From an uncultured Verrucomicrobiae bacterium (lineage in GTDB: Bacteria > Verrucomicrobiota > Verrucomicrobiia > Limisphaerales > Palsa-1400): DNA of 64,000 bases. Where the stretch lies: NCBI GenBank assembly GCA_963707025.1, contig CAVPOM010000008.1, forward strand, positions 32,001 through 96,000, given 5' to 3'. This document shows positions 38,728 through 52,058 of the stretch, piece by piece; position 1 is the stretch's first letter; the number at the start of each line of letters is the position of its first letter. The notes beneath the pieces were generated by a model. It did no database searches, was not told where the DNA came from, and worked only from the letters and a program-made list of their open reading frames with translations. A program made the position numbers and the translations under genes.

Positions 38728-39308
38728 TCCCGCACGAACAGCCTCCATTCTGGGATGCCGTGGGCGTTGCGAATGAGGGCCGTGGCCGGCAATTCCTTCG
38801 GCGCGCGCGGCACTGAGAGCAGCTTCAGGCCGGCTTCGTGCGGCAGGCGGTTGCCTTTGCGGGCGTTCACCTCCTTCCCGGCCCAAACCAGGTTGTCCCA
38901 GGCGTTCTTGCCACCGCGCGAGCGGGGTAGGACGTGATCCATGCTGCCTTCCTCGGGGCGCAGCACACGGCCGGTGTATTGGCAGCGGTTGCCGTCGCGC
39001 TCGCGAATGGCGCGGGCGCACAGCTTCGGGCGCTTCTTGGGCACCTTGGCGTAATTCACCGCCACGATCACCGTCGGCACGCGGATTGGACCGCGGACGG
39101 TTCGCACCGCATTGTCCTGCGGGCGCATGGGCAGCGTAATCCACTCGTCCCAGGAAACGGGACGAATGTGATTTTCCCCTTCGATTTCCAGGCCGGTCGC
39201 CACGTTCGTCGCCATCATGCAGAAGGCCTCCTGCGGCGTCCGGACGTTGACGGCCTGCCAGTTGCGGTTGAGCACCAGCACCATCGCTTTGTTCAGTATG
39301 TCGTTCAT
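38724..39308 (-). CDS. HNH endonuclease
   Basis: VLVLN..W, RD...CQYTG, DHVLPRSRGG..WDNLV and N..KGN motifs. Confidence 0.92.
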   Translation of the reverse strand: MNDILNKAMVLVLNRNWQAVNVRTPQEAFCMMATNVATGLEIEGENHIRPVSWDEWITLPMRPQDNAVRTVRGPIRVPTVIVAVNYAKVPKKRPKLCARAIRERDGNRCQYTGRVLRPEEGSMDHVLPRSRGGKNAWDNLVWAGKEVNARKGNRLPHEAGLKLLSVPRAPKELPATALIRNAHGIPEWRLFVRE

Positions 39309-39502
39309 AAAAATGTCTGCATACGGCCACCGTGCTTGTCGCGGCGGGGTGTTTGTTCTTTGTTGAGGCATCCCCGGCGGCGAGATCGAGACGCTTCCTG
39401 AGCATCATTCCGTGTCCAGCCCAGACGAGCGTGCTTCCGGCTGGCCTTCGGCACGTTTTTCGCGCATTTTGGGATTGAAGCGTTCGAATTCTGGAGAAAA
39501 TC

Positions 39503-40207
39503 ATGAGACCTTACGTGATCTGCCACATGTGTACGACGATCGACGGTAAAATCCTGGGCGATCGTTGGGGCAAACTTCCCGGCTGCAAAGACAGCGCCAC
39601 GCTCTTCGAAACCACGGCGGCCAGCTTTGGCATCGGCGCCTGGCTTGTGGGCACGACTACGATGAAAGAATTTGCCGGGCGAAACGTGAAACTGCCCCCC
39701 GCCAGGAAACCGGTCGTTCATCGGGACCACATTGCCGACAAAAATGCCAGGCGACTGGCGATCGGTGTGGATGCGAAGGGCGTTTTGCGCTTCCAAGAGA
39801 ACGAAGTGGACGGCGATCATGTGGTCCTGCTTATCACCGATCGTGTCGGTGACGATTACCTGGCGCACCTCCAGGCCGCCGGCGTCTCCTATCTCTTCTG
39901 CGGCCAGAAGGAAGTGGACCTGCACGTTGCCCTTGGCAAGCTGGGCAGCAGTTTTCATCTACGCAAGCTGATGCTCCAGGGCGGTGGAAAGTTCAACGGC
40001 GCCATGCTCCACGCCGGGCTTGTCGATGAAATCAGCCACGTCACCGTGCCAGTCGCCGACGGCGGCGTTGGCATCTCGAGCTTTTTCGACATTCCCGGCA
40101 ACCCGCCGCCCAAATCCGCTGCCACTCTCCGCCTCCTGTCGTGGAAACGACTGCCAGGCAGCGTGACGTGGCTGCGCTACCGCGTCGTCGTTAAGCATAC
40201 GCGCTGA
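39503..40207 (+). CDS. RibD C-terminal/dihydrofolate reductase-like protein
   Basis: RPYVICHM...DGKI and GGG..NG..L.AGLVDEIS motifs. Confidence 0.85.
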   Translation: MRPYVICHMCTTIDGKILGDRWGKLPGCKDSATLFETTAASFGIGAWLVGTTTMKEFAGRNVKLPPARKPVVHRDHIADKNARRLAIGVDAKGVLRFQENEVDGDHVVLLITDRVGDDYLAHLQAAGVSYLFCGQKEVDLHVALGKLGSSFHLRKLMLQGGGKFNGAMLHAGLVDEISHVTVPVADGGVGISSFFDIPGNPPPKSAATLRLLSWKRLPGSVTWLRYRVVVKHTR

Positions 40208-40278: not shown

Positions 40279-40353
40279 TGGCTGCCTCGCCCGGTTTTGC
40301 TCCAGGTCCTCCGGTGTCAGAGACCGGCGCGCTCCTGATTACGCCACGAGGCA
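40279..40353 (-). tRNA. tRNA-Gln(CUG), atypical T-loop
   Basis: CCGGT-CTCTGAC-ACCGG arm; encoded CCA. Confidence 0.85.
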
Positions 40354-40388
40354 ATGGCCCGCCGAGCGGCAGCCCGGAGGGAGAAGAT

Positions 40389-40462
40389 TGGTCGCCCGGG
40401 GAGGTTCTGCCCCTCCGATTTCTGGGTGTAGGCCAGACGTGATGCTATTTCACCACCGGGCG
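40389..40462 (-). tRNA. tRNA-Val(UAC), C33
   Basis: TCTGG-CCTACAC-CCAGA; CCA. Confidence 0.8.
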
Positions 40463-40467
40463 GAAAT

Positions 40468-40542
40468 TGGCTGCGGGAGCCGGGTTCGCACCGACAACTG
40501 CGCTTTCAAAGAGCGCCGAGTTGCTGGTTACTCCATCCCGCA
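40468..40542 (-). tRNA. tRNA-Gln(UUG)
   Basis: GCGCT-CTTTGAA-AGCGC; CCA. Confidence 0.88.
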
Positions 40543-40548
40543 ACAAAA

Positions 40549-40625
40549 TGGTGGAGCCGGAGGTAGTTGCAACCTCACCATACCGGATTAAAAGTCCGGT
40601 GCCGGTCTTCTGTGGCATCAGCTCC
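40549..40625 (-). tRNA. tRNA-Lys(UUU)
   Basis: CCGGA-CTTTTAA-TCCGG; CCA. Confidence 0.85.
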
Positions 40626-40632
40626 AGGAAAT

Positions 40633-40653
40633 TGGTGCTCGCGGTGGGGCTTG
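40633..40653 (-). pseudogene. 3' tRNA fragment
   Basis: ...CAAGCCCCACCGCGAGCACCA with no matching 5' half. Confidence 0.45.
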
Positions 40654-40837
40654 GGAAACTCCAATAATCACCAAAGGGAAACCGGCGCGGCCGGCATCCC
40701 AGATTCCCTTTGCCTCCGTTTCCGATCCTGCGGGTGTTGGTAAATGTTGGAGTCGCGATTGCGCACCCGCGCACTGGCACTCAAGCGGCCTCTGCGCACA
40801 CAAGCCAGGCCGATTCCTTGAAAAGTTTTCAGTTAAA

Positions 40838-41602
40838 TTGCATCAAAAAAGCTGGCAAAATGGTGTCGTTCACCCTATATTTACACACATAAATGCATCA
40901 CCAGATGACATCCGAAAAGCGGCAGTGGCCGACGCTCGAAGGACGCTTGAGTCAGCCGCTCACTTCACGCGTGGAGGCGGTGCGCCAGCTCCAGACCACG
41001 ATGCCGATTACGCCTGTCGCGCAGGCCGTGTTGAAGCGGAGCAACGGCACCTCATCCAATGGGCCAAAGAAAACGGGAAACTAGGCTCAAGCGGTCGGTT
41101 GCCGCCCGTGTTTGCTCAGGGTGGAGAGCATGATGTCTTTTTTCAAAAATGCACCCAGCGGTATCTCAAGGCGACACGGCAGGATCGACACAAGGGATAC
41201 GGCATTGCCCTCGGTTCGCACACGCACGGTGCAACCCCTGCCGAGTATCTCGACCGTCTCTTCCTTCAGAACTGCATTTTCGATGATGATATTCGGCTTG
41301 AGCGCGTCGTGCAGAACGATGGCAAACCCATAATTATCACATCCCAACCAGCCATCAAAGGAAGCACCCCACGGCAAGACGGACTGGACGAATTGATGAT
41401 CGGGAAGGGCTACGAAAAACTGGCAGAAGGGGCTTATTACGATGAAGGGGCCGGCCTATTGCTGTACGACCTTTTCCCTCGCAACGCCATCCAAGCTGCC
41501 GACGGACATATTTATCCCATTGATCCCGTCATCCAACGCATTACGCCGGACTTTGGGCAGTTTTTGCGGCATGAGCCTTACACGATCGACCTCCCCCGCT
41601 AA
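40838..41602 (+). CDS. putative kinase-like domain of the type found in polyvalent proteins
   Basis: GGEH.V, TP.EYL.RL...N..F.DDI, SQP and DL.PRN...IDP motifs; start uncertain. Confidence 0.55.
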   Translation: MHQKSWQNGVVHPIFTHINASPDDIRKAAVADARRTLESAAHFTRGGGAPAPDHDADYACRAGRVEAEQRHLIQWAKENGKLGSSGRLPPVFAQGGEHDVFFQKCTQRYLKATRQDRHKGYGIALGSHTHGATPAEYLDRLFLQNCIFDDDIRLERVVQNDGKPIIITSQPAIKGSTPRQDGLDELMIGKGYEKLAEGAYYDEGAGLLLYDLFPRNAIQAADGHIYPIDPVIQRITPDFGQFLRHEPYTIDLPR

Positions 41603-41709
41603 ACCCTTCATGCTGCGCACTCGTCTGCGGATTGGGCAAGCGGACTTATTGCGTCCGACTTATTGCGTCACCTTCCGCAATGATAATCGGGTCCGGTAAC
41701 GCCCAGGAA

Positions 41710-41768
41710 CCCGACGCTCATCTAGCGTGACGCTGTGGATAAAACTGCTCACTTTGAGCTACATGCGC
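41710..41768 (-). pseudogene. 5' tRNA-like fragment
   Basis: GCGCATG-TA-GCTC-AAAGT-GAGC D-arm plus ACGCT/AGCGT arm; 3' acceptor strand absent. Confidence 0.5.
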
Positions 41769-41773
41769 GAAAA

Positions 41774-41865
41774 TGGCGGAATGCCGTGGACTTGCACCAC
41801 ACTCCTGTTTCCAGGAGCGCACTGTTTAGCGAACAGGCCCGGGCCCCTCGTCCGGTTGGCATTCC
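41774..41865 (-). tRNA. tRNA-Ser(GCU), C33
   Basis: loop TCGCTAA; long variable arm CTCCTG-GAAA-CAGGAG; G73-CCA. Confidence 0.85.
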
Positions 41866-41869
41866 AGAT

Positions 41870-41953
41870 TGGTCGGCGTGGGGAGACTTGCACTCCCAAG
41901 GCTGTTCGATCTTGAGTCGAACCGGTCTGCTATTCCCGATTAACCACACGCCG
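41870..41953 (-). tRNA. tRNA-Leu(CAA), atypical fold
   Basis: TTCGA-CTCAAGA-TCGAA; no long variable arm. Confidence 0.75.
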
Positions 41954-42036
41954 GTCGGCGACCCGGGACTTGCACCCGGAAGGCTCGGCGATTTTAAGTC
42001 GCCGGGGTCTGCTGTTCCCGCTGAAGCCAGTCGCCG
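41954..42036 (-). tRNA. tRNA-Leu(UAA), atypical fold, no full CCA
   Basis: GGCGA-CTTAAAA-TCGCC; abuts the next tRNA. Confidence 0.75.
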
Positions 42037-42041
42037 TAAAA

Positions 42042-42125
42042 TGGTGGGCATGAAGGGACTTGCACCCCCAAGGCTGCCAGATTCTGAGTCTGGACCCTCT
42101 GCTGTTCGGGTTAAACCACATGCCC
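42042..42125 (-). tRNA. tRNA-Leu(CAG), atypical fold
   Basis: CCAGA-CTCAGAA-TCTGG; CCA. Confidence 0.75.
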
Positions 42126-42132
42126 GTGAAAT

Positions 42133-42209
42133 TGGCAATCCCGGAAGGACTCTCACCCTCATCTCCGACGTTTCGAAGCGTCGCGCTCTGCTCATTGAGC
42201 TACGGGAGC
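42133..42209 (-). tRNA. tRNA-Arg(UCG), 8-nt anticodon loop as sequenced
   Basis: CGACG-CTTCGAAA-CGTCG; weak top of acceptor stem. Confidence 0.7.
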
Positions 42210-42281
42210 GTTGAAATTGGCGGTCGTGCTCCAGCGCCTGCGAATCGCTTTTTGCCCGAAAGCTTGAGACGATGCAGGCGT

Positions 42282-43110
42282 ATGAAGAAAACAGTTCTGA
42301 TCACGGGAGCGTCCTCCGGTATTGGCCAGGCGGCGGCCAAGGTATTTGCAGGCAACGACTGGAACGTCATTGCCACCATGCGCCAGCCGGCGGCGGATTC
42401 GGAATTGGCCCGCCTGCCTGGCGTATTGGTCACATGCCTGGATGTGCAGGATCGAGAGAGCATTGACGCGGCCGTTGCGGACGGTGTTGAGCGGTTCGGC
42501 CGGATCGACGCCTTGATTAACAACGCAGGATTCAGTCTGTTCGGCGTCTTCGAGGCGATTTCCCGCGAAAAGATTCAAGAACAATTCGACGTCAACGTCT
42601 TCGGTGTGATGGACGTTCACGCGGGCGCTGTTGCCGCATTTCCGGCGGAACAGGAGCGGCTTGATTATCAACATCAGTTCGCGCGCGGGGCTGGTCGGCC
42701 TGCCCATGATTTCGCTCTATTGCGCGGGCAAATATGCGCTGGAAGGGTTTTCCGAGGCGCTGGCTTACGAACTGGCGTCGCAGAACATCGTCATCAAGGT
42801 TGTCGAACCTAGCGGCGGCGTCACCGGCACCAGCTTCTCCCAGAGGATGGCCCAGGAAAAGACTGCCGGCACCCTGCCCGCCGATTACGACGATTTTATT
42901 GCCCGCACCAGCGCGATTTTCGCCACCATGCAGGCGGCCCGGAAAACCACCGCAGACGACGTGGCCCGCGTTATCTATGAGGCCGCGACGGACGGATCGA
43001 GCCGGTTTCGCTATTTCATCGGCGAGGACGTTGGAGACTTCGTCCAAGCGAAGCGCGAGAAATCCGACCAGGACTACATTCATTTCATGCGCGCGCGCTT
43101 TTCCTCTTGA
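42282..43110 (+). CDS. SDR-family oxidoreductase (frameshift near 42620)
   Basis: TGASSGIG, NNAG and YCAGK motifs in two frames. Confidence 0.85.
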
Positions 43111-43117
43111 CTGGAAA

Positions 43118-43192
43118 TGGTGGGTTGCCGCGGAATTGCACCGCGTTCTCGCCGGTTAAGAGCCGGGACTTCACTGTAAAAGTTTGCAACCC
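43118..43192 (-). tRNA. tRNA-Lys(CUU)
   Basis: CCGG-CTCTTAA-CCGG; CCA. Confidence 0.82.
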
Positions 43193-43193
43193 A

Positions 43194-43267
43194 GACGCGA
43201 CACGAAGGCGGAGTTGAACCGCCGCAGCCAGGTCTGTGATGCCCTGGCCGGCGCCGGTGTTCGCGTC
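43194..43267 (-). ncRNA. tRNA-like RNA without D-arm or CCA
   Basis: GACGCG-A-ACAC/GTGT-CGCGTC closing stem, GCCAGG/CCTGGC hairpin, GGCGG-TTCAACT-CCGCC T-arm. Confidence 0.55.
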
Positions 43268-43277
43268 GCGAAAGTAT

Positions 43278-43372
43278 CCCCAAGCACGCTGAATCTGGCG
43301 TTTGGCCAGATGGCCGTGCGCAAGCACCTTCGACCGTGCGGAGTCTCTGCCGGCAGGCCAGATTCACTTGGG
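43278..43372 (-). ncRNA. structured RNA with bulged terminal stem
   Basis: CCCAAG-TGAATCTGGC ... GCCAGATTCA-GCGTG-CTTGGG. Confidence 0.5.
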
Positions 43373-43375
43373 AAA

Positions 43376-43466
43376 TGGTCGGGCATCAGGGTAACGCGCC
43401 CTGTATTCCGGTTTGGAAGGCGTTTGCACGCGGCCATCAGCGTGTTTCTCTCAACACCTATGCCCG
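43376..43466 (-). tRNA. tRNA-Gly(UCC) with 16-nt insertion in the anticodon arm
   Basis: perfect CGGGCAT/ATGCCCG acceptor, D and T arms, CTTCCAA loop preceded by GGCCGCGTGCAAACGC. Confidence 0.7.
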
Positions 43467-43522
43467 GAGAAATGGAATTAATCGTCGTTGTTGGTTTTCT
43501 CAAAAGACGCAACAATCCAGCC

Positions 43523-44269
43523 ATGACGATTCCGGCTGAATTGGTCCAACGTCTTGCCACTGCCAAAAGCGTGACCGTGCTCACAGGCGCTGGCGTATCC
43601 GCGGAAAGCGGCGTCCCCACCTTTCGCGATGCCCAAACCGGCCTGTGGGCCAAATACAGTCCCGAAGAACTGGCCACTCCGCGCGCCTTCCGACGCAATC
43701 CCCGCCTCGTTTGGGAGTGGTATGAGTGGCGGCGGAAGCTTGTCGCCGGCGCCAAACCAAACCCAGCGCACTTCGCCTTGGTGGAAATGGAGGGCCTCTT
43801 TCTGCGGTTCCATCTCATTACGCAAAACGTGGACGGTCTTCATCAACGCGCCGGAAGCCGGCACGTCATCGAGCTGCACGGCAATATCACGCGCACGAAA
43901 TGCTCCGACGAAAGCACGATTGTTTCGAGTTGGAAAGACACGGGTGACGTCCCGCCGAAATGTTCGGCCTGTGGCGGCCTGTTGCGCCCCGATGTGGTTT
44001 GGTTCGAAGAGCCGATGCCGGAAGAGGAGATGCAAGAGGCCATGACGGCGAGCACGCATTGCGACTTCTTCTTCTCCATTGGGACATCCACCGTTGTTTA
44101 TCCGGCGGCCGCCCTGCCATCGGAGGCATTGCGCAGCGGAGCGACCGTGGTGGAGATCAATCCGCAACCCACACCATTCACGCCGCAGGCGCATTTGGCT
44201 CTGGCTGGGGCGGCCGGGGTTGTGTTGCCCGAATTGGTGAGGGCTATCAGCGCCTCGCGCCGCTTTTGA
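43523..44269 (+). CDS. cobB: NAD-dependent protein deacylase (sirtuin)
   Basis: TGAGVSAESGVPTFR, TQNVDGLH, ELHG, RPDVVWF and GTS motifs. Confidence 0.93.
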   Translation: MTIPAELVQRLATAKSVTVLTGAGVSAESGVPTFRDAQTGLWAKYSPEELATPRAFRRNPRLVWEWYEWRRKLVAGAKPNPAHFALVEMEGLFLRFHLITQNVDGLHQRAGSRHVIELHGNITRTKCSDESTIVSSWKDTGDVPPKCSACGGLLRPDVVWFEEPMPEEEMQEAMTASTHCDFFFSIGTSTVVYPAAALPSEALRSGATVVEINPQPTPFTPQAHLALAGAAGVVLPELVRAISASRRF

Positions 44270-44272
44270 AAA

Positions 44273-44347
44273 TGGAATCCCGCGTGGGGGGCGCACCCAC
44301 TTTTGCGGCTTTGCAGGCCGCCGCCTGAGCTGTTCGGCCAACGGGAC
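44273..44347 (-). tRNA. tRNA-Cys(GCA)
   Basis: GCGGC-CTGCAAA-GCCGC; U73-CCA. Confidence 0.85.
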
Positions 44348-44352
44348 GCATT

Positions 44353-45099
44353 TCAGATTTCGACGACCAATGAAGGATTAAACCCTTTGCAGCGCTCATC
44401 CGGGTAGCCCAGTTGATTTGTCAGGATACGGGTTGACCCCATCACGTAGTCCACGTTGTAATGCGTGTGTCCGTGGATCCAGAGAGGAACGCCACTCTGT
44501 TCGACCAACGAGTCCAAGTCGGAAGCAAACGCCGCTTTAAGTGGACTGTCCGCGTGATAGAGCGCTTCTGACCGGGCACTCGGTGCATGATGCGTCACAA
44601 CGATGGTGCGGGCGCGATCACATTTGGCCAGCGCGCGGCGCAGCCAGGCGACAGATTCCGCGTGCAATCTGGCGGTGTCACATGCGCGCAGCCTGCGATT
44701 TTCTGTGCTGAACTGAACGATGCCGTAGTCGCTCATGATGGCCTCAGCTACGCGCATCGATCCATCCAGATCGTCACCCAACTGAAAATCTGTCCATAAG
44801 GTGCATCCCAAGAACGTGTAGCCGTTGATTTCCACGGCGTCGTTCTCCAGCAGATGGATGTTGCTGCCATCTGTTTCTCGTTTCAGGGTTTCGGTCAGCT
44901 CGGGCAAGGAGTGGCGATAGAACTCGTGGTTTCCTAAAACGTAAATGACCGGCTTGGCGAAGAATTGATTTCTCGCCCAGATACGCCCTTCGCGGCCAAG
45001 ATGAACGTCACCCGCCAACACCACGACATCCGCGTCGGTCACGGGGATTTTGACTGCTCCGAATTCAAAGTGCAGATCGGCCAAAATGTGTAAACGCAT
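44353..45099 (-). CDS. calcineurin-like metallophosphoesterase
   Basis: DLH, AGD, GNHE, THH and HGHTH motifs. Confidence 0.92.
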   Translation of the reverse strand: MRLHILADLHFEFGAVKIPVTDADVVVLAGDVHLGREGRIWARNQFFAKPVIYVLGNHEFYRHSLPELTETLKRETDGSNIHLLENDAVEINGYTFLGCTLWTDFQLGDDLDGSMRVAEAIMSDYGIVQFSTENRRLRACDTARLHAESVAWLRRALAKCDRARTIVVTHHAPSARSEALYHADSPLKAAFASDLDSLVEQSGVPLWIHGHTHYNVDYVMGSTRILTNQLGYPDERCKGFNPSLVVEI

Positions 45100-45198
45100 A
45101 GGTAACTTTATGTTAGGTGAAAATTGGTTAGGAGTTCAAAGTGCGGGCGGAAGCTTCCGCCTCCGCCCGCGTTGTTCCTGGCGTCCTTGAACCGTTCG

Positions 45199-46906
45199 CT
45201 ATTCGCGAACAAAGTCCGCAATGACGGCTGGCACCGTCGTGTCGAAGCCGACCACGTCCAGCATGCCCGCGGTCGTTTGGGTCGGCGAGGGTGAAGCCGT
45301 TGGAGGTCATGCCCACAACGACCGCCTTCGCGTCGCCGACGAACTCGTCGCGATACTGGCGCAGGGCCTGGGCCGGATGGATGTTGCCCGCCCACGTCTC
45401 GCTGTCCGTATAGGTGATAAACGCCGACACGTTCAGCTTGTTGCGGGCGGCCCACACCATCGGCAGGGCGCAATCCGTGCCACCCATTGGGATGGCTTCG
45501 ATGCGCTTGATGACGTCGGCCAATCTCATGCGCGGCGAGAGGTTCACACGGGTGATGCCCGGTTCGCCGCCGCCGTGCATGCCACCGTAACCACCGCCCG
45601 CCGGAGCCGAGAACGCGATGATCTCGCATTCCGGTTCGGTTGCGGCCGTGATCAGTGCCATCGCCGCGCTGGCTTCGCGGGCCGAGATGCACGAACCCGC
45701 GATCATGGAACCATCCATCGAGCCGCTTACGTCAAGCGCGAGCAGCACCGGCTTGTTGCACGGTTCCACGTTCTGGAACGTCGCGTAAAACGCTTCGTCC
45801 AGCGCGTCCACCACCGCCGACACCGGCGACCACGCAAGCGAACCCTTGTCGCCGTGACCCTGGGCGTAGACCTTCTGCGCCACAAGGACCGCCAGCGGGT
45901 GGATGCGCGCACGCTTGAGCGCCATCTCGTCCTGCAGCTTGCGGACGATCAATCGCTTGGAGTCGCTGAACGGAGCCAGCAGACCGAGGCTCGTCATCTT
46001 GCCGAGGTTGCGGATCATCGCCGTCATCGGCATACGTTCCAGCAAGGCCTCCCACACAACGACTTCATTGAGCCACTGCGTTGGGATGGCTTCGCGCGGC
46101 AGGTCGAACTCGTTGATGATCTTCACGATCTCGTCCGCGCTCAATGCGCGCTTGGCCCGCTCGAAGGCTTCGATGAGCTTCGGCAGTGCGCCGACCGGGC
46201 CATACTTCGCGACACGGTCTTCACCGCGCACTCTGCGCTTCACTTCGCGTTCACCCAACGAATCCGCATGGGAAGCGGAACCTCCGCACAGCAACCAGCG
46301 GAACACCGATTCGTGCTGGGCCGACGGAGCCTTTGGGTGAGCAAGGCGAAGAAGGTCGCCGTGCGACCAACCGTCGCGTTGCTGGTACTTGACCGCCTGG
46401 TGCGCAAGATCATCGGCATCGCGGTAAACATACCAGTCGCCAACGGCGTTGCGCAGGCCACGGCCCCAGCCGCGCATGGCATTGACGTATTCGGCGAAGT
46501 GGAACAAGTGCGTGCCAATGCGGCAGACCTTGTTCAGGCTCGCAAACGCGAGCGCCTTCGCCTGGGCATCACCATGCGTGACGGCCAGCGCGAGGGCGAA
46601 GATGGCCGGATCGTTCTTGGGCGCGCGTCCGGCATCGCTGATCTCAACGATGCGGTTGACGGCACGGACTCCGTCGGCCCTGATGCAGCGGAGAATCGCC
46701 TCGTGGTTCTGCTTCACGAGATCGCGTTCCGCGATGTAATACGTGCCTCCTTCGGCGCCGAGGACGAGGAAACGGTCGAGCCGCGTCCAGTCATCCACTT
46801 CCCACGAGAAGCCGCCGCCCGAATTGCGAACCTGGTTCGCGCCCGGGATCGGCTGCGACTGCGGGGTGATGCGGCGATTAAACTGACGTGCGTAATTGAT
46901 AGCCAT
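45199..46906 (-). CDS. rsr: Ro60/TROVE-domain RNA-binding protein (Rsr); apparent 1-nt frameshift near 45268
   Basis: RLDRFLVLG.EGGTYY, GWGRGLR.AV..WY, KYQQRDGWSH.DLLRL.H and vWA DVSGSM motifs; the shifted frame gives ...GMLDVVGFD...FVRE*. Confidence 0.95.
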
Positions 46907-46966
46907 GGTGGCCTCCTTCTTGTGAGCGTGCCGCCAACTTCCGGCACGGGTTTTCTATCGGTTAAA

Positions 46967-47032
46967 CTGCGGACAAGTTGGTGAACGTGGGATGGTCATT
47001 CGTAGTGATAACCCATGTTCTTCGGCCCGCAG
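46967..47032 (-). ncRNA. Y RNA 1 (minimal, no tRNA-like domain)
   Basis: CTGCGGGCCGAAGAACATGGGTTATC...CCCACGTTC...CTTGTCCGCAG; resembles the Ro60-binding stem of Y RNAs. Confidence 0.8.
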
Positions 47033-47047
47033 TCAATGGGCTTGCGA

Positions 47048-47295
47048 TTATTCGCGGAAAAAAGTGATTCCTCAGAGCGCCGTCATATCGTCCGGAGCGG
47101 AGGCAGCATTTCTTAAAAGCTGCGTCCGGAGCCGCATGGGCAGAGGTCGTTCCGCCCCAGCTTTTCGCTGAGTTCCTTATTCCCGTGAACGAGGCGCACG
47201 CCGCGTTTGACGTTCGTTTCGGACGGGAAGCCCTTGCGGCGTTTGCTGGTGATTTCGAAACTGGCGTCTTCATGATCATGTGTGTTGTTTGCCAT
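47048..47295 (-). CDS. SEC-C motif small protein (frameshifted)
   Basis: [28 protein letters not shown] upstream. Confidence 0.75.
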
Positions 47296-47357
47296 ACGGC
47301 CTCCTCGTTTGAGTATTGCGGTTGAAACATCGTGGCCCGCGCCACGATGAGATAGCG

Positions 47358-47465
47358 GATGGGCAAGGGACGACCCGGGAATTGCTCTATCCACTGAGCT
47401 ACTCCTCGTTGCCGAGGAGACTGGATTCGAACCAATGACCGATAACCCGATGTCTTCGGCCCATC
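47358..47465 (-). ncRNA. Y RNA 2 (YrlA-like, permuted tRNA domain)
   Basis: GATGGGCCGA/CTTGCCCATC stem; T-arm TTCGAAT, closed acceptor hairpin, then D-arm. Confidence 0.9.
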
Positions 47466-47473
47466 AAATTGAA

Positions 47474-47598
47474 AGCGGGCAAGAAAGCGACCGTGGAATT
47501 GCCCAGCGTGCTGCCTTTACACCACTGCGGAACGCTCCGCGGGACGGAATTGAACCGCCGCTGCCGGGTTATCGAGAACCCACAATTTACGGCCCGCT
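47474..47598 (-). ncRNA. Y RNA 3 (YrlA-like)
   Basis: AGCGGGCCG/CTTGCCCGCT stem; T-acceptor-D order. Confidence 0.85.
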
Positions 47599-47607
47599 GA
47601 AAGGGAC

Positions 47608-47736
47608 CGACGGATAAGAAACGAACTGGGAATTTACGTGCTCTACCCCTGAGCTACCCCGGCATTGGAGCCGGAGGCGGGACTCGAACCCGCAACCTCG
47701 TCGTTATCAGCGATAACCCAATCCTGCGACCCGTCG
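47608..47736 (-). ncRNA. Y RNA 4 (YrlA-like)
   Basis: CGACGGGTCG/CTTATCCGTCG stem; GGGTTATC; T-acceptor(TCCA loop)-D order. Confidence 0.88.
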
Positions 47737-47745
47737 AAAAAGCCG

Positions 47746-47859
47746 CGACGGACAAAGAGCGATATGGGAAACAATCGGTCGCCCGATTGCGCGGGGTTCG
47801 AACCCGCTCATCCCGCAGTGCGGAACTTTTCCAGATAACCCATGATCAACGACCCGTCG
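47746..47859 (-). ncRNA. Y RNA 5 (T-arm plus hairpins, no clear D-arm)
   Basis: CGACGGGTCG/TTTGTCCGTCG stem; GGGTTATC; GCGGGTTCGAACCCCGC. Confidence 0.8.
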
Positions 47860-47866
47860 GAAAAAC

Positions 47867-48004
47867 TCGATGGACAAGTGCTGCCGCAGATAGGGATTCG
47901 CAAGCGGGAATCGAACCCGCGTCACCAAACTCACGTTCGGCGGCTCTCTCACGGTGAGCAACCACCCCTGTTGGAGCGATAACCTGCAACATTCGGCCCA
48001 TCGA
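47867..48004 (-). ncRNA. Y RNA 6 (non-permuted tRNA-like domain)
   Basis: TCGATGGGCCGA/CTTGTCCATCGA stem; GGTTATC; D-anticodon-T order. Confidence 0.82.
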
Positions 48005-48007
48005 AAT

Positions 48008-48083
48008 TGGTCAGGAAGCCGGGATTTGCACCCGGACCGTCGCGTTCACAACGCGGAATGCTGCTGTTACACCACAATCCTGA
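48008..48083 (-). tRNA. tRNA-His(GUG), atypical acceptor
   Basis: CGCG-TTGTGAA-CGCG; A73, no G-1:C73. Confidence 0.75.
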
Positions 48084-48090
48084 TTTGAAA

Positions 48091-48166
48091 TGGAGCCCCT
48101 GGTCGGACTCGCACCGACGAATACGAGTTTACGAAACTCGCCCTGTGGCTGCTGAGGCACAGGGGC
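48091..48166 (-). tRNA. tRNA-Thr(CGU)
   Basis: CGAGT-TTCGTAA-ACTCG; CCA. Confidence 0.85.
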
Positions 48167-48170
48167 ACAA

Positions 48171-48248
48171 TGGTGTCCACGGCAGGAATCGCGCCTGCGA
48201 CCTCCACCTTCGCGCGGTGGCGCTCTGATCTAACTGAGCTACGCGGAC
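48171..48248 (-). tRNA. tRNA-Arg(GCG), G32 C33
   Basis: CCACC-GCGCGAA-GGTGG; CCA. Confidence 0.75.
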
Positions 48249-48251
48249 AAT

Positions 48252-48329
48252 TGGCATCCGTGATCGGACTTTCACCGATTAGGCCCGGCTTGAAAGACCG
48301 GCTGCTCGATCTGCTTTGCATTCACGGAC
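48252..48329 (-). tRNA. tRNA-Glu(UUC)
   Basis: CCGGT-CTTTCAA-GCCGG; G73-CCA. Confidence 0.85.
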
Positions 48330-48333
48330 AGGA

Positions 48334-48409
48334 TGGCCGCTGGAGTCGGAATTGCGCCGACACTTCCTGTGCTTCAAGCAGGTGTGCAGACTGACTACAC
48401 CATCCAGCG
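48334..48409 (-). tRNA. tRNA-Phe(GAA), atypical
   Basis: CCTG(C)-TTGAAGC-(A)CAGG; C1-G72, G73. Confidence 0.7.
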
Positions 48410-48417
48410 GGCAAAGC

Positions 48418-48636
48418 GGTGCGCGGCAGCTTGGGTCAGCTACCTTGAAGGGCTGTCTAAGAAGCTTGAGCCTTGCGGGCTGCGGCTTGCATTTTGAACG
48501 AGCTGACCGATGTGGTTTGACAACTCGGCATCAACATCAGCAGGTAATTGGATTTTCGGTCCAATAAGGAACGTTTAGAGCGCTCCAGATTTTGACAGCG
48601 TGCTCCATCGGCGGCATTCCGCCACCACCGCGCACC
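48418..48636 (-). ncRNA. structured RNA downstream of the DIP1984-like gene
   Basis: GGTGCGCGG/CCGCGCACC closing stem; GGTCAGCT/AGCTGACC stem enclosing a CAA-repeat loop; several hairpins. Confidence 0.6.
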
Positions 48637-48658
48637 TGAATCAGAACCGCTGGCGGAA

Positions 48659-49105
48659 TCAAGGATTCACGCTGCGGGTGAAGTTGAACTCGTCCAGCGC
48701 ATCTTGCAGCGACTGAATTTCGGCGTTCAACTCGGTGACAAGTTTGTCCACGTCCACCTTGCCGAGCTGGGCGACATATTCGACCTCGTAGCTTGCATCG
48801 GCAAAACCGCGTCCTTCGTGGAAAACGCCGGCCTTGGTGTCCAGCGCGTTCAACGTGGTGGCCAGACCCTTGAGTTCCGCCAGCCGGAAAATCCGGTCGT
48901 AGATTTCCACGTTGGCGGCCGCGACGGCGGCCTTGACCTTGACCAATTCGTCGAGCTTAACGCGCAGGCGCGTCAAGACTTCGCGATTGTCGTAGTCGAA
49001 CTTCTGTTTAGTGGAACGGGAGTTTTGTTTGGTGAGCAGATCCTTCAACTGGGCGACTTCGCCGGCCAGTTGGTTTTTCATTTTAAGTGCTTTGGCGATT
49101 TTCAT
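48659..49105 (-). CDS. DIP1984-like coiled-coil protein
   Basis: MK.AKALK.K..L...; K.AV..AN; LQD.LD.FN pattern. Confidence 0.65.
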   Translation of the reverse strand: MKIAKALKMKNQLAGEVAQLKDLLTKQNSRSTKQKFDYDNREVLTRLRVKLDELVKVKAAVAAANVEIYDRIFRLAELKGLATTLNALDTKAGVFHEGRGFADASYEVEYVAQLGKVDVDKLVTELNAEIQSLQDALDEFNFTRSVNP

Positions 49106-49146
49106 TGGATACCTTTCATTGGTTGCGTGTGTTTGATCGAATGAGT

Positions 49147-49220
49147 TGGTCGTCCCGGCAGGTAACGCTCCTGCTTCTTCCGGTTATCGACCGGAGGCTC
49201 TGCTTTTGAGCTACGAGACG
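49147..49220 (-). tRNA. tRNA-Ile(GAU), C33
   Basis: TCCGG-TCGATAA-CCGGA; CCA. Confidence 0.85.
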
Positions 49221-49394
49221 GTGGTTAATTGAGGCTTCACGCCAAAACGATGCGCGGGGCGGAACACAAGATTGAGCTTCGTGGTCGGGCGGATTCGAAT
49301 GCCACGTTTTGGCTTGTAGCTTCGACGAAAAGGGCATTGACTTTGATGCCGCATTATGGGTTTCACGGGATTTCCTTTCGTTGAGGGTTAAAAC

Positions 49395-49481
49395 TGGCGG
49401 ATGGTGTAGGGATCGCACCCACGCAGCCCGCAGGCTCACTCGGTTTTCAGGACCGGGGCATTACTTCTCTGCCAACCATCC
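49395..49481 (-). tRNA. tRNA-Ser(UGA), C33
   Basis: CGGT-CCTGAAA-ACCG; variable arm AGCC/GGCT; G73. Confidence 0.85.
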
Positions 49482-49489
49482 GTACAAAT

Positions 49490-49563
49490 TGGCTGCCAGA
49501 CTTGGACTCGCACCAAGACAAGCGGCTTAACAGGCCACCGTGCTACTTTGACACCACCTGGCA
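49490..49563 (-). tRNA. tRNA-Asn(GUU)
   Basis: GTGGC-CTGTTAA-GCCGC; G73-CCA. Confidence 0.88.
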
Positions 49564-49564
49564 A

Positions 49565-49640
49565 TGGCGCTGCCGGCAGGATTCTCACCTGCATCTATCC
49601 GCTTAGAAGACGGATGCCTGATTTGTTCGGCCACGGCAGC
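49565..49640 (-). tRNA. tRNA-Arg(UCU)
   Basis: TCCGT-CTTCTAA-GCGGA; CCA. Confidence 0.88.
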
Positions 49641-49647
49641 GTTGAAA

Positions 49648-49723
49648 TGGTCGGAATGGCAGGATTTTCACCTGCGGCCTCCCGGTCCCAAGCCGGGTGC
49701 TCTAAAGACTGAGCTACATTCCG
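49648..49723 (-). tRNA. tRNA-Pro(UGG)
   Basis: CCCGG-CTTGGGA-CCGGG; C1-G72, A73. Confidence 0.9.
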
Positions 49724-49730
49724 TGAAAAA

Positions 49731-49806
49731 TGGCGGACCCGAAGGGAGTTGCACCCTCAACCCTCCCGCAGACAACGGGGCGCTCTGCTGATTGAGCTAC
49801 GGATCC
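49731..49806 (-). tRNA. tRNA-Asp(GUC)
   Basis: CCCG-TTGTCTG-CGGG; G73-CCA. Confidence 0.85.
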
Positions 49807-49810
49807 GAAA

Positions 49811-49898
49811 TGGTGGGAAGTGCTGGTAATGCTCCAGTCGTCGCTTCCGACATGTTTTGAGACGTCCGGGTTACGGCCGGATTGCCGGATCACTTCCC
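49811..49898 (-). tRNA. tRNA-Tyr(GUA), D-armless, long variable region
   Basis: TCCGG-CCGTAAC-CCGGA; GGGAAGTG/CACTTCCC acceptor; A73-CCA. Confidence 0.7.
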
Positions 49899-49904
49899 TG
49901 AGAT

Positions 49905-49977
49905 TGGTAGCGGGGGTGGGAGTTGCGCCCACGGAGGCTGAGCTTATGGGGCTCGCCTGAATCTCATTCTCCCCGCA
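49905..49977 (-). tRNA. initiator-like tRNA-Met(CAU), reduced D-arm
   Basis: GAGC-CCCATAA-GCTC; 1:72 mismatch. Confidence 0.75.
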
Positions 49978-49983
49978 GTGAAA

Positions 49984-50058
49984 TGGTGGAGTCGGTGGGT
50001 AGCGCGCCCACATCAACCTGCTTGCAGGGCAGGTGCATTGCTTGTCTGCCACGACCCC
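49984..50058 (-). tRNA. tRNA-Ala(UGC), C33
   Basis: CCTGC-CCTGCAA-GCAGG; G3:U70 present. Confidence 0.9.
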
Positions 50059-50064
50059 GGAAAA

Positions 50065-50136
50065 TGGCAGGCTGCCTCCGTGCTGCCCGGAGTAAGCTGA
50101 GTTTTGGAGACTCGGCCGCGTGCTGACGCTCAGCCT
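50065..50136 (-). tRNA. tRNA-Trp(CCA), reduced D-arm
   Basis: GAGT-CTCCAAA-ACTC; G73-CCA. Confidence 0.78.
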
Positions 50137-50145
50137 GTGCATGAA

Positions 50146-50220
50146 TGGTGCGGCTGCCGGGAGTTGCGCCCGGACTTCCTCCATGGCGAGGAGATATTCT
50201 GCTGCTTAAATCACAGCCGC
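50146..50220 (-). tRNA. tRNA-Gly(GCC), C33
   Basis: TCTCC-TCGCCAT-GGAGG; CCA. Confidence 0.85.
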
Positions 50221-50221
50221 G

Positions 50222-50258
50222 AAAGTAAAAGGGCCGGGAGCGTTCAGGCTCCCGGCCC
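50222..50258 (-). terminator. terminator-like hairpin just before the first tRNA
   Basis: GGGCCGGGAGC-CTGAAC-GCTCCCGGCCC followed by TTTTACTTT. Confidence 0.7.
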
Positions 50259-50520
50259 ATGCCATTTCAACAAAGAACAAACACCTCTTGGTGATCTATG
50301 CGATCCCAACCCGCGGTTTCACGGCGGCTGTTTCGGTGTTTAGGGGCACACCTCCTGCGAAGCCCTTGATATGTAAATCTAAAATTCGTCTCGCTCGTCT
50401 TGATGACGCTGTCTTCCGGTCATGGGCAGACCCCACCGGTGAGGCTTCTCTGCTCGTCCTCGCCAAATTCAAGTTGTCGCCAGAAGACATCACCTGGATG
50501 TCGCTTTGTTCTTGTTCACA
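50259..50520 (-). ncRNA. structured leader RNA containing boxA-like TGTTCTTTG
   Basis: AAGAACAAA/TTTGTTCTT closing helix; GACATC/GATGTC, GCAGA/TCTGC and GGTGT/ACACC stems. Confidence 0.5.
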
Positions 50521-50567
50521 GATTGTCCGTCTTTCGTCGTCACTCGTTCACATTCATGGTGTTCAGG

Positions 50568-50606
50568 AAAAATAAAAAACCCTGCTTGCATTTCGGCAAG
50601 CAGGGT
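50568..50606 (-). terminator. intrinsic terminator (attenuator)
   Basis: ACCCTGCTTGC-CGAAAT-GCAAGCAGGGT followed by TTTTTATTTTT. Confidence 0.9.
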
Positions 50607-50628
50607 GGAAAAAATTCTGTTTCGTTCG

Positions 50629-50799
50629 TTACCTGCTTGCCATGAGTCTATCCAACTTGACCTGTTGTTCCGACGCGGTCCTGGATAGGCTAAGGCTAAA
50701 CACACTACCCGGGTTATACCGGCTATGACGTGTCCCAATGGTCATTGGGGCCGTCGTAATCGGCCAACTCGTGGCTGATATGTTTAAGCAAGTTTTCAT
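50629..50799 (-). CDS. putative 56-aa leader peptide MKTCLNISATSWPITTAPMTIGTRHSRYNPGSVFSLSLSRTASEQQVKLDRLMASR
   Basis: starts just after the promoter; last codons overlap antiterminator GGCAAGCAGG; contains all 20 amino acids. Confidence 0.7.
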   Translation of the reverse strand: MKTCLNISATSWPITTAPMTIGTRHSRYNPGSVFSLSLSRTASEQQVKLDRLMASR

Positions 50800-50812
50800 T
50801 GAACTTATGCGA

Positions 50813-50841
50813 AAGCTATCATGGCGTGTTCATGTCGTCAA
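50813..50841 (-). promoter_or_regulatory. sigma70-type promoter of the tRNA array
   Basis: TTGACG-N17-TAGCTT with extended TG; AT-rich UP-like tract at 50842-50880. Confidence 0.75.
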
Positions 50842-50959
50842 CTACTATTTGAAAATATTTTGAGATTTATTTATTTCTCTCGAATTCAAGTATCGGATTA
50901 GTTGATTTGAGATTCTGCGGCAGCGTCAATCGGGAATCAAATACCACTCGTGACTGCGA

Positions 50960-52058
<1,099 letters not shown>

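Follow-up and report, generated by a model that had tools for sequence, protein, structure and literature searches.

A conserved leader reading frame with a probable terminator switch ahead of a supernumerary tRNA array in Verrucomicrobiota

Layout and distribution of the leader cassette

The analysed stretch, called the window here, comprises 64,000 nucleotides (nt) of an uncultured Verrucomicrobiae bacterium (assembly GCA_963707025.1, contig CAVPOM010000008.1, positions 32,001 to 96,000). It carries a short cassette made up of a promoter, a leader open reading frame (ORF1) and an intrinsic terminator (T1), and this cassette is followed by a second open frame (ORF2), a terminator-like hairpin (T2) and a long array of tRNA genes. 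All features of the cassette lie on the minus strand and coordinates are those of the window. An earlier interpretation made from the letters alone, referred to as the sequence-only reading, had seen an attenuator at this place, in which a ribosome stalled at any codon of the leader would induce a backup tRNA operon.

The predicted promoter TTGACG-N17-TAGCTT was found as described in the sequence-only reading. It consists of the -35 hexamer TTGACG (50836–50841) and an extended -10 element (TG-a-TAGCTT, 50813–50821; hexamer TAGCTT at 50818–50813), and the last bases of its 17-nt spacer are TGA. Upstream lies an A+T-rich stretch (50842–50875) that resembles an UP element and may act as one; the equivalent stretch averages 71% A+T in the 69 distinct copies of the cassette introduced below. 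With a strict pattern, TTGnnn was detected 16–19 nt 5' of the -10 element in 39 of these copies, and TGnTAnnnn ends 12–13 nt 5' of the ATG in 56 of them. The ATG of ORF1 (50799) is located 13 nt past the -10 hexamer. The transcription start is predicted near 50806, which would give a 5' untranslated region of approx. 5–7 nt. In most relatives (e.g. L007, L008 and L013), a direct repeat TACGTnnnTACGT extends over the -10 box and the predicted start (..TATACGTCTCTACGTTCGATG). The TACGTnnnTACGT repeat (TACGT, within the 20 nt before the ORF1 start) does not occur in the window's own copy. By analogy with the repeats bound by the repressor TrcR in Anabaena, it may be an operator and add a repressor layer.

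ORF1 (50629–50799) contains 56 sense codons and ends with TAA (50629–50631), which confirms the frame proposed earlier. Immediately 5' of the stop, the last ten bases of its sense codons, GGCAAGCAGG (50641–50632, segment 2), are a perfect complement of CCTGCTTGCC (50604–50595) in the 5' arm of T1 and form the candidate antiterminator strand. T1 (50568–50606) has a stem of 11 pairs (50606–50579; 7 G-C), a loop of 6 nt and the U-tract TTTTTTATTTT. The 10-nt complement and the 11-bp U-tailed terminator had both been noted in the sequence-only reading and are present. The stop codon adjoins the antiterminator strand in 59 of 67 scored copies. Within ORF1, segment 1, ACUUGCUUA (50785–50793, codons 3–5), is complementary to the antiterminator strand and is assigned tentatively. 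A structured core (50648–50752) comprises a hairpin (50751–50732), a helix CUAUCC/GGAUAG (50688–50683 with 50653–50648) and others, with compensatory changes among the copies.

A second copy of the cassette, 91% identical, was found in the same genome. The likeness of the two copies starts about 50–55 nt 5' of the -35 hexamer (alignment column ~496) and continues into the arrays; ten of the eleven substitutions in ORF1, as read from the alignment, change the amino acid. Matches at E ≤ 0.01 were obtained in 35 of 61 related genomes, this genome (G000) included, and in 23 of the 30 genomes of the same family. Most of them span query bases 44–289, which correspond to the predicted transcript from its start to the terminator. 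From related genomes 26 loci were taken; L004 and L005 were left out because they are truncated at contig ends, and L026, L030 and L031 because they matched in the terminator only. A degenerate motif for the conserved start of ORF1 was then scanned over the genome contig collection and hit at least 118 stretches. Among the matches listed, at least 57 were complete copies, defined as a start codon, a frame of 40–65 codons and a terminator motif. The remaining stretches were chance matches in unrelated taxa, were cut by locus ends, or were broken, as in L078 with 32 codons and L082, frameshifted to 78. Nearly all complete copies listed were found in records titled Verrucomicrobiota, Verrucomicrobia subdivision 3 or Limisphaerales, and a few in bins with other names. 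The copies, at least 83, reduce to 69 distinct sequences, and the 69-row alignment of these (A2) underlies the conservation counts. A DNA search of a sample of 300 further genomes of the phylum, with only two candidates scored in each, gave no match at E ≤ 1e-5, and BLAST of 50300–50900 against phage and plasmid collections gave no match. In the genomes and contigs searched, the cassette was found only in one order of Verrucomicrobiota.

Reading frame, alternative pairings and codon content

The frame of ORF1 contains no stop codon in any of the 69 copies, in comparison with 260 and 254 stops in the other two frames, at least one per copy. ORF1 begins with ATG in all copies but one, which has GTG, and the length is 56 codons in 50 of 69 (range 46–59). 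Out of 19 distinct indel events inside ORF1, 15 have a length divisible by three; what remains is a +1/+4 pair in which one event compensates the other, and an 8-nt event shared by the three variants with a stop 8 nt further. In the spacer between stop and terminator, 1 of 12 indel events is a multiple of three. Judged from these sequence comparisons, the open frame is under selection. The entropy at the three codon positions is 0.66, 0.69 and 0.74 bits and thus gives no sign of selection at the amino-acid level, and over the first 14 codons hardly any variation occurs at any of the three positions. The peptide does not appear to be selected as a protein, and translation rather than the peptide seems to be maintained. 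An open frame kept over an unselected peptide is the signature expected of a regulatory ORF that overlies a functional RNA. A reading of ORF1 as a small protein was rejected, as Pfam gave no match for it and variability is equal at all codon positions. In the three variants L043, L107 and L133, the last third of ORF1 is read in another frame and the stop lies 8 nt later. The helix partners are kept in these variants (as GAUUGG/CCAAUC instead of CUAUCC/GGAUAG), as are the antiterminator strand and the spacing from stop to terminator, and no amino acid is missing.

T1 is paired in 97.9% of the alignment cells and shows four compensated pairs. The antiterminator pairing (A2 columns 187–196 with 240–249) is possible in 94.3% of cells, compared with 29–53% when the partner is slid along the alignment. 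Four of its pairs are altered on both sides, e.g. C-G to U-A at 189/247, and its 11 compensated cells were reached by none of 500 shuffles. The distance from the stop to the terminator arm is 21–25 nt in 66 of 69 copies. The spacer is extended by 3 nt in the three copies that carry an additional codon, and by 6 nt in the three whose stop lies 8 nt later. In these six stop-shifted copies, the stop-to-terminator distance stays at 21–23 nt, whereas the distance from the strand to the terminator grows from 26 to 29 and 32 nt. Since the spacing is held although the stop has moved, we read this as selection on the position of the ribosome at the stop relative to the terminator.

The pairing of segments 1 and 2 is found in 92.6% of cells (25–45% when slid) and RNAalifold also pairs the core of segment 1, but covariation in the 69 copies was not above that of shuffles. 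Segment 1 could tentatively be regarded as an anti-antiterminator, in analogy to segment 1 of the trp leader. The core helices (A2 columns 58–62/76–86, 91–97/109–115 and 131–137/174–180) are 89–97% paired with compensatory changes, and the values observed for the structure as a whole were reached by none of 500 shuffles. For the window copy, hairpin energies of -20.4 kcal/mol (T1) and -15.2 kcal/mol (antiterminator) were calculated. The nascent RNA lacking the 3' arm of T1 folds as the antiterminator, and the full-length minimum-energy fold keeps T1. In Rfam 15 (gathering mode, whole window), no family, T-box included, was found on 50568–50841. At E ≤ 10, a search of 50300–51000 gave two chance-level matches, both on T1, and no family for the element.

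The 3' arm of T1 (50589–50581) and the antiterminator strand (50640–50632) share GCAAGCAGG with the tRNA-Ala(UGC) gene of the array (50024–50016, minus strand), in which CCUGCCCUGCAAGCAGG forms the 3' side of the anticodon arm. A tRNA arm may have given rise to the switch, or the likeness may be due to chance.

The codon content of the window's ORF1 was recounted, and the figures of the sequence-only reading held throughout. In all, 42 distinct sense codons occur in the frame, and every one of the 20 amino acids is encoded. The set includes TTA, ATA, CTA, AGA and AGG but lacks CTG, GAG and CCY. Lys, Gln, AGR-Arg and TTR-Leu are each encoded by both of their codons, and His, Tyr, Phe, Asp, Cys and Asn by a single one each. 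There is no run of any codon (the commonest, AGC, occurs four times), unlike in leaders of the trp/his type, which combine such a run with biosynthetic genes. The sequence-only reading had expected about 37 distinct codons for uniform usage, and fewer in this genome. Uniform random codons gave 36.8 ± 2.4 (42 reached by 2.4%), and open frames made by shuffling the bases of ORF1 gave 37.0 ± 2.4 (3% reach 42; 6.8% have all 20 amino acids). In 507 windows of 56 codons from eight Pfam-supported genes of the 64-kb window, 33.0 ± 3.5 distinct codons were counted, with 42 reached by 0.4% and all 20 amino acids by 4.7%.

Codons were also grouped into 45 decoding classes (NNY, NNA and NNG). ORF1 covers 39 of the 45, a broad but incomplete coverage, compared with 31.0 ± 2.2 for uniform codons; the probability of at least 39 was 0.0001 and 0.0002 in two simulations. 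The earlier suggestion that tRNA species rather than amino acids are sampled stood in part, as the excess is sharper by decoding class than by codon, but the contrast between NNR and NNY boxes is partial. Of the 69 copies, 58 contain the complete AGR pair, 50 the TTR pair, 38 that of Gln, 35 that of Lys and 23 that of Glu. The corresponding numbers are low for His (9), Tyr (12), Phe (5) and Asp (2), but Asn (59), AGY-Ser (47) and Cys (33) likewise have both codons in many copies. Breadth is measured more cleanly by counting decoding classes.

All 20 amino acids occur in 60 of the 69 copies, with means of 42.2 distinct codons (35–47) and 37.5 decoding classes (32–42). When residues were shuffled within alignment columns, 30.6 ± 3.3 complete copies, 39.7 codons and 35.3 classes were obtained, and the observed values were never reached (0 of 2000 shuffles for amino acids and codons, 0 of 1000 for classes). 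To allow for kinship among the copies, the test was repeated on 14 representatives that share ≤60% peptide identity. Nine of them encode every amino acid (expected 3.0 ± 1.3; 0 of 2000), all 14 lie above the random mean of 31.0 ± 2.2 classes, and 11 do so at P < 0.05. Tyr stands in five different columns across the copies, yet about once per sequence; likewise, the columns of Tyr, Cys, His and Glu differ between clades and about one copy per sequence is kept. No single amino acid is enriched, Ala averaging 4.3 of about 56 codons. ORF2 served as a matched control: its 45 copies have 32.9 classes and 36.9 codons per 56 codons and 17.9 amino acids, and none of the 45 is complete.

The breadth of ORF1 exceeds chance and is retained through divergence, and on these comparisons it is probably itself under selection. 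The comparison of homologous loci suggested in the sequence-only reading turned out in its favour: ORF length, stop position and, with compensatory changes, the antiterminator/terminator pairing were kept, and the peptide drifts, with nearly equal entropies at the three codon positions, while breadth persists at ≤60% identity.

ORF2, T2 and the tRNA array

Of 49 copies whose downstream flank reaches 900 nt or more, 42 are followed by a tRNA gene on the same strand, the median distance being 514 nt; in the first set of copies the number was 19 of 25. Ala(UGC), Gly(GCC) and Asp(GUC) are the commonest first tRNAs. The placement before tRNA arrays, which the sequence-only reading had described for the window, is thus common to most copies. 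The switch does not, however, immediately precede the tRNAs: a second ORF and a second terminator (50490–50221), missed in the sequence-only reading, intervene.

ORF2 (50296–50490, minus strand) has 64 codons here and 62–64 in most relatives, and its start lies within a conserved hairpin. In 45 copies no stop was found in frame, in comparison with 173 and 101 in the other frames, and there is no codon periodicity. Identity across the order is about 90% over the 3' 150 nt, and an internal hairpin is compensated (CCGC/GCGG versus CCAC/GUGG). T2 (50221–50258, minus strand) is a terminator-like hairpin of 11 pairs (10 G-C) followed by TTTTACTTTC; it ends at the 5' end of tRNA-Gly, and its stem covaries among relatives. 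Rfam contains no family for 50221–50490. Neither single-sequence folds nor a helix scan of 40 aligned copies yielded a convincing antiterminator for T2, and a promoter scan detected no minus-strand site between T1 and the tRNAs. The T2 hairpin may act as a further gate, serve in RNA processing or mark where a separate RNA ends.

The array (40282–50220, minus strand) contains, according to ARAGORN and Rfam, at least 16 tRNA genes, and it also holds embedded genes. ARAGORN detected 11 tRNA genes on the same strand (40468–49806), and Rfam 13 in gathering mode and two more with laxer filters, namely tRNA-Gly(GCC) (50220–50149) and tRNA-Ala(UGC) (50058–49987), both on the minus strand. In the whole genome, ARAGORN found 77 tRNAs, among them dispersed copies with the same anticodons and two further clusters. 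The array is thus a dense cluster additional to a dispersed housekeeping set, as is characteristic of long tRNA arrays. No WhiB gene follows the cassette in the window.

Embedded in the array is an rsr/Ro60 gene (45128–46906) with matches to the TROVE and vWA_Ro60 domains. Directly 5' of it, a match to ceN72-3_ceN74-2, a nematode stem-bulge RNA related to Y RNAs, was obtained at gathering level (46966–47034, minus strand). It is probably a bacterial Y RNA missed by the bacterial Y-RNA models. A metallophosphoesterase gene and further ORFs without a family are embedded as well. On the opposite strand inside the array lie an ORF with a polyvalent-protein kinase domain (40838–41602, plus strand) and a CobB/Sir2 deacylase gene (43184–44269, plus strand). 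At the far end of the array, an ORF of 1517 residues (34951–39504, minus strand) matches the anti-phage protein Upx, with E = 1e-150 for the PADLOC model and 549 bits in NCBIfam, which is below the cut-off of 1900.

Position 55 in the T-loop is G (TGCRAnT or TGAGAnT) in every readable tRNA of the clustered arrays, i.e. the array of the window (40282–50220, corresponding to G000:C8 72–82 kb) and those at G000:C2 106–112 kb and C4 150.7–153.8 kb. In the dispersed housekeeping tRNAs of this genome the T-loop has the canonical form TTCRAnn with U55, and by this difference the spare set looks chemically marked. Some tRNAs of the array have C33 and were missed by ARAGORN.

Contigs from metatranscriptomes of wetland and peat (four runs from four studies) fall on the leader, ORF2 and the tRNAs; those on the leader come from three studies. 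As RNA libraries may contain DNA, they are taken as a hint of transcription only. One contig bridges T1 (50509–50667); such contigs show no starts, ends or strand. No contig of the four runs falls on 50848–50900 and two contigs of one run begin at 50607, but uncovered stretches and contig ends of this kind are no evidence on the transcription start or on termination.

Proposed mechanism, alternatives and known systems

The cassette has the layout of a leader-peptide attenuator. T1 lies between ORF1 and the genes, the antiterminator would exclude T1, and the stop codon has the corresponding geometry, the effect of which is presumed. Both alternative pairings and the stop position are conserved in the copies compared, and the cassette is linked to tRNA arrays. 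It is very likely a translation-dependent attenuator. As for the complete proposal, a ribosome-mediated transcription attenuator that heads a supernumerary tRNA array and senses nearly all codon classes by means of its leader ORF, we put its probability at roughly 60%. On this basis, spare tRNA genes in soil and wetland Verrucomicrobia would probably be switched on when ribosomes translate slowly.

According to the proposed mechanism, the transcript would start from the extended -10 promoter and the almost leaderless ORF1 would be translated behind the moving RNA polymerase. Segment 2 would be able to pair with the 5' arm of T1, 23 nt downstream, in which case T1 could not form. A ribosome that keeps pace and reaches the stop codon would cover segment 2, T1 would fold, and transcription would end at approx. 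50568. If the ribosome lagged anywhere in ORF1, segment 2 would be free, the antiterminator would form and the polymerase would read on through ORF2, the tRNA genes and the embedded Rsr and Y-RNA genes. As ORF1 contains all 20 amino acids and about 39 of the 45 decoding classes, mostly once each, a shortage of almost any charged tRNA, or a general inhibition of elongation, would be sensed. Translation itself, the efficiency of termination, the default state and the inducer of read-through are inferred. If the proposal is true, decoding capacity would feed back directly on tRNA supply. It would also bear on the purpose of spare tRNA arrays, be it stress tolerance or defence against tRNA-cleaving enzymes. 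A stronger version is rather doubtful. In this version, ORF1, with nearly every decoding class sampled once, would be a purpose-built probe of the whole charged-tRNA pool. The loss of any tRNA species, whether brought about by starvation or by anticodon nucleases from phages, toxins or rivals, would stall the ribosome and induce a chemically distinct spare set together with Ro60/Y-RNA quality-control genes, and ORF2 and T2 would make the control a two-step gate.

Several points speak against the attenuator. Translation of ORF1 is presumed from the conservation of its frame only, and the flat variability over codon positions would also be expected of a purely non-coding RNA. The start of ORF1 has no Shine-Dalgarno sequence, and its predicted 5' untranslated region is very short; this weighs little, because among 13 starts in the window a clear one was found only before rsr. 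One RNA-library contig reaches 50821, which is 5' of the predicted transcription start, and the assignment of the promoter is unconfirmed. T1 is the more stable hairpin at equilibrium, so that any switch must be kinetic. Because ORF2 and the strong T2 hairpin with its U-tract stand before the tRNAs, read-through at T1 alone may not reach them, and for seven of the 49 copies no downstream tRNA was detected. With regard to breadth, one or two amino acids are missing in nine of the 69 copies and in five of the 14 divergent representatives, and the decoding classes of L006, L028 and L038 are within chance (P = 0.10–0.42). In addition, the copies share ancestry, and the shuffle tests treat them as more independent than they are.

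Some of these points would fit an attenuator that senses the general speed of elongation, as affected by antibiotics or starvation, with the wide sampling of codons as a by-product of a long ORF over structured RNA. The constraint on ORF1 is at the RNA level and not at the peptide level, coverage is incomplete and varies (32–42 classes; nine copies lack an amino acid), and common ancestry inflates the significance of the shuffles. Moreover, toiL and similar sensors, as far as described in the accessible part of PMC12121999, do not need full coverage. Yet ORF2, of similar length, under RNA constraint and from the same genomes, stays at the random level in classes, amino acids and complete copies. 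Divergent members, including the three with another C-terminal frame, still reach 36 classes and 20 amino acids, and Tyr, Cys, His and Glu change columns between clades at about one per sequence. A mere speed sensor is considered unlikely, though it deserves to be kept in mind.

A free-standing small gene from the promoter to T1, encoding a small RNA, a 56-residue protein or both, with the array transcribed from elsewhere, would account for the strong promoter and strong terminator of the cassette, for the conserved nucleotide sequence and internal helices and for T1 being the more stable fold. RNAs and leader peptides derived from attenuators can act in trans in Sinorhizobium, according to the portions consulted of PMC7298713 and PMC7968998. 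However, a constitutive terminator would not need the upstream copy of its 3' arm, which is kept and covaries with the 5' arm. The spacing from stop to terminator is retained when the stop moves, selection at the amino-acid level is missing, the promoter scan offered no minus-strand site from which the tRNAs could be transcribed downstream of T1, the place of the cassette before arrays is fixed and one RNA-library contig crosses T1; such a gene is quite improbable. Still less credit is given to a structure-based leader, i.e. a riboswitch, T-box or protein-binding element that senses a ligand, uncharged tRNA or a protein, with the frame kept open for another reason such as ribosomes keeping Rho off. 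The dense structure of ORF1 with its covarying helices and the near invariance of its first 14 codons would agree with it, and uncharged tRNA would presumably be a natural signal for tRNA genes. On the other hand, no Rfam family, T-box included, matched the element, and the relaxed search hit only the terminator at chance level. The stop next to the antiterminator strand and its conserved distance to T1 point to ribosome position as the signal, and a ligand pocket would leave the codon breadth unexplained.

Long spare tRNA arrays have spread horizontally through many phyla. To our knowledge, their regulation has been worked out only in one cyanobacterium, where it is exerted by a repressor. 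In Anabaena, long tRNA arrays are induced by translational stress (PMC8421152, as far as its text was available). The repressor of the trn L-array, TrcR, is a ribbon-helix-helix protein that binds repeats over the -10 box and transcription start (PMC8421152 and PMC10272220, available parts). The Anabaena L-array, as portrayed there, and the array described here have in common that they are long, horizontally spread and supernumerary, silent by default and induced by translational stress (the last two, for the present array, under the proposed mechanism), and that genes for RNA processing or repair are nearby. The words attenuat*, leader and terminator have 0 occurrences in the available text of PMC8421152. 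Control differs, being exerted by TrcR in Anabaena and, as proposed, by a leader ORF with a terminator switch here.

Classical attenuators (trp, his, leu, thr, ilv) have leaders of 14–30 codons, among them a run that specifies the regulated amino acid or acids, and precede biosynthetic genes. They share with the cassette the promoter-proximal short ORF, mutually exclusive hairpins with the segment pairings 1:2, 2:3 and 3:4, and termination when the ribosome reaches the end of the ORF. The cassette differs in its 56 codons without a run, in its use of nearly every decoding class once or twice, and in the tRNA genes downstream. The erm, cat, vmlR and bmrCD leaders rely on drug- and peptide-specific arrest; antibiotic-sensing upstream ORFs (uORFs) of this kind control resistance or toxin genes and are not known to show codon breadth. 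The toiL leader of E. coli responds to several classes of translation inhibitors (PMC12121999). As in the proposed cassette, stalling in a short ORF remodels the downstream RNA and turns genes on in all of these leaders, but toiL acts by occlusion of a ribosome-binding site and by Rho, and codon breadth is not part of the account in the accessible portion of that article.

The closest described system is the uORF of whiB7, which shares the terminator/antiterminator logic and the setting of what is sensed by composition (PMC10274678; this and the following statements on whiB7 refer to its available portion). Efficient translation of the whiB7 uORF leads to a rho-independent terminator and slowed translation to an antiterminator. 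Read-through is triggered by antibiotics and by shortage of amino acids, tRNAs or synthetases. The amino acids of the uORF decide which shortages are sensed, as the response to Trp or His is lost when the respective codons are removed, and the M. smegmatis uORF contains all amino acids except Cys (PMC10274678). These uORFs are Ala-rich (25–40%), variable in length and sequence, actinobacterial, and control a transcription factor (PMC10274678). The verrucomicrobial cassette, in contrast, is not Ala-rich, has a near-fixed length and conserved helices, precedes tRNA genes and shows no sequence relation to whiB7 leaders. It would work like whiB7 without being a member of that class, which is defined by an Ala-rich uORF before whiB7/wblC in Actinobacteria.

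The statement of the sequence-only reading that no general tRNA-pool sensor of this kind had been described must be narrowed accordingly: the logic has a precedent in the whiB7 uORF (PMC10274678, portion available), but its use on tRNA genes was not found in the literature. In full-text searches, no publication was found in which a leader-ORF attenuator is linked to tRNA arrays or operons. If the proposal is true, the cassette would be the first example in the literature searched of a test ORF whose translation governs tRNA genes. The 69 variants would then represent a natural experiment on uORF composition, in which the RNA switch is fixed, codons drift and breadth is kept. Compared with known systems, the attenuator logic is already established by whiB7, and what is new, as far as the literature was searched, is its use on tRNA genes.

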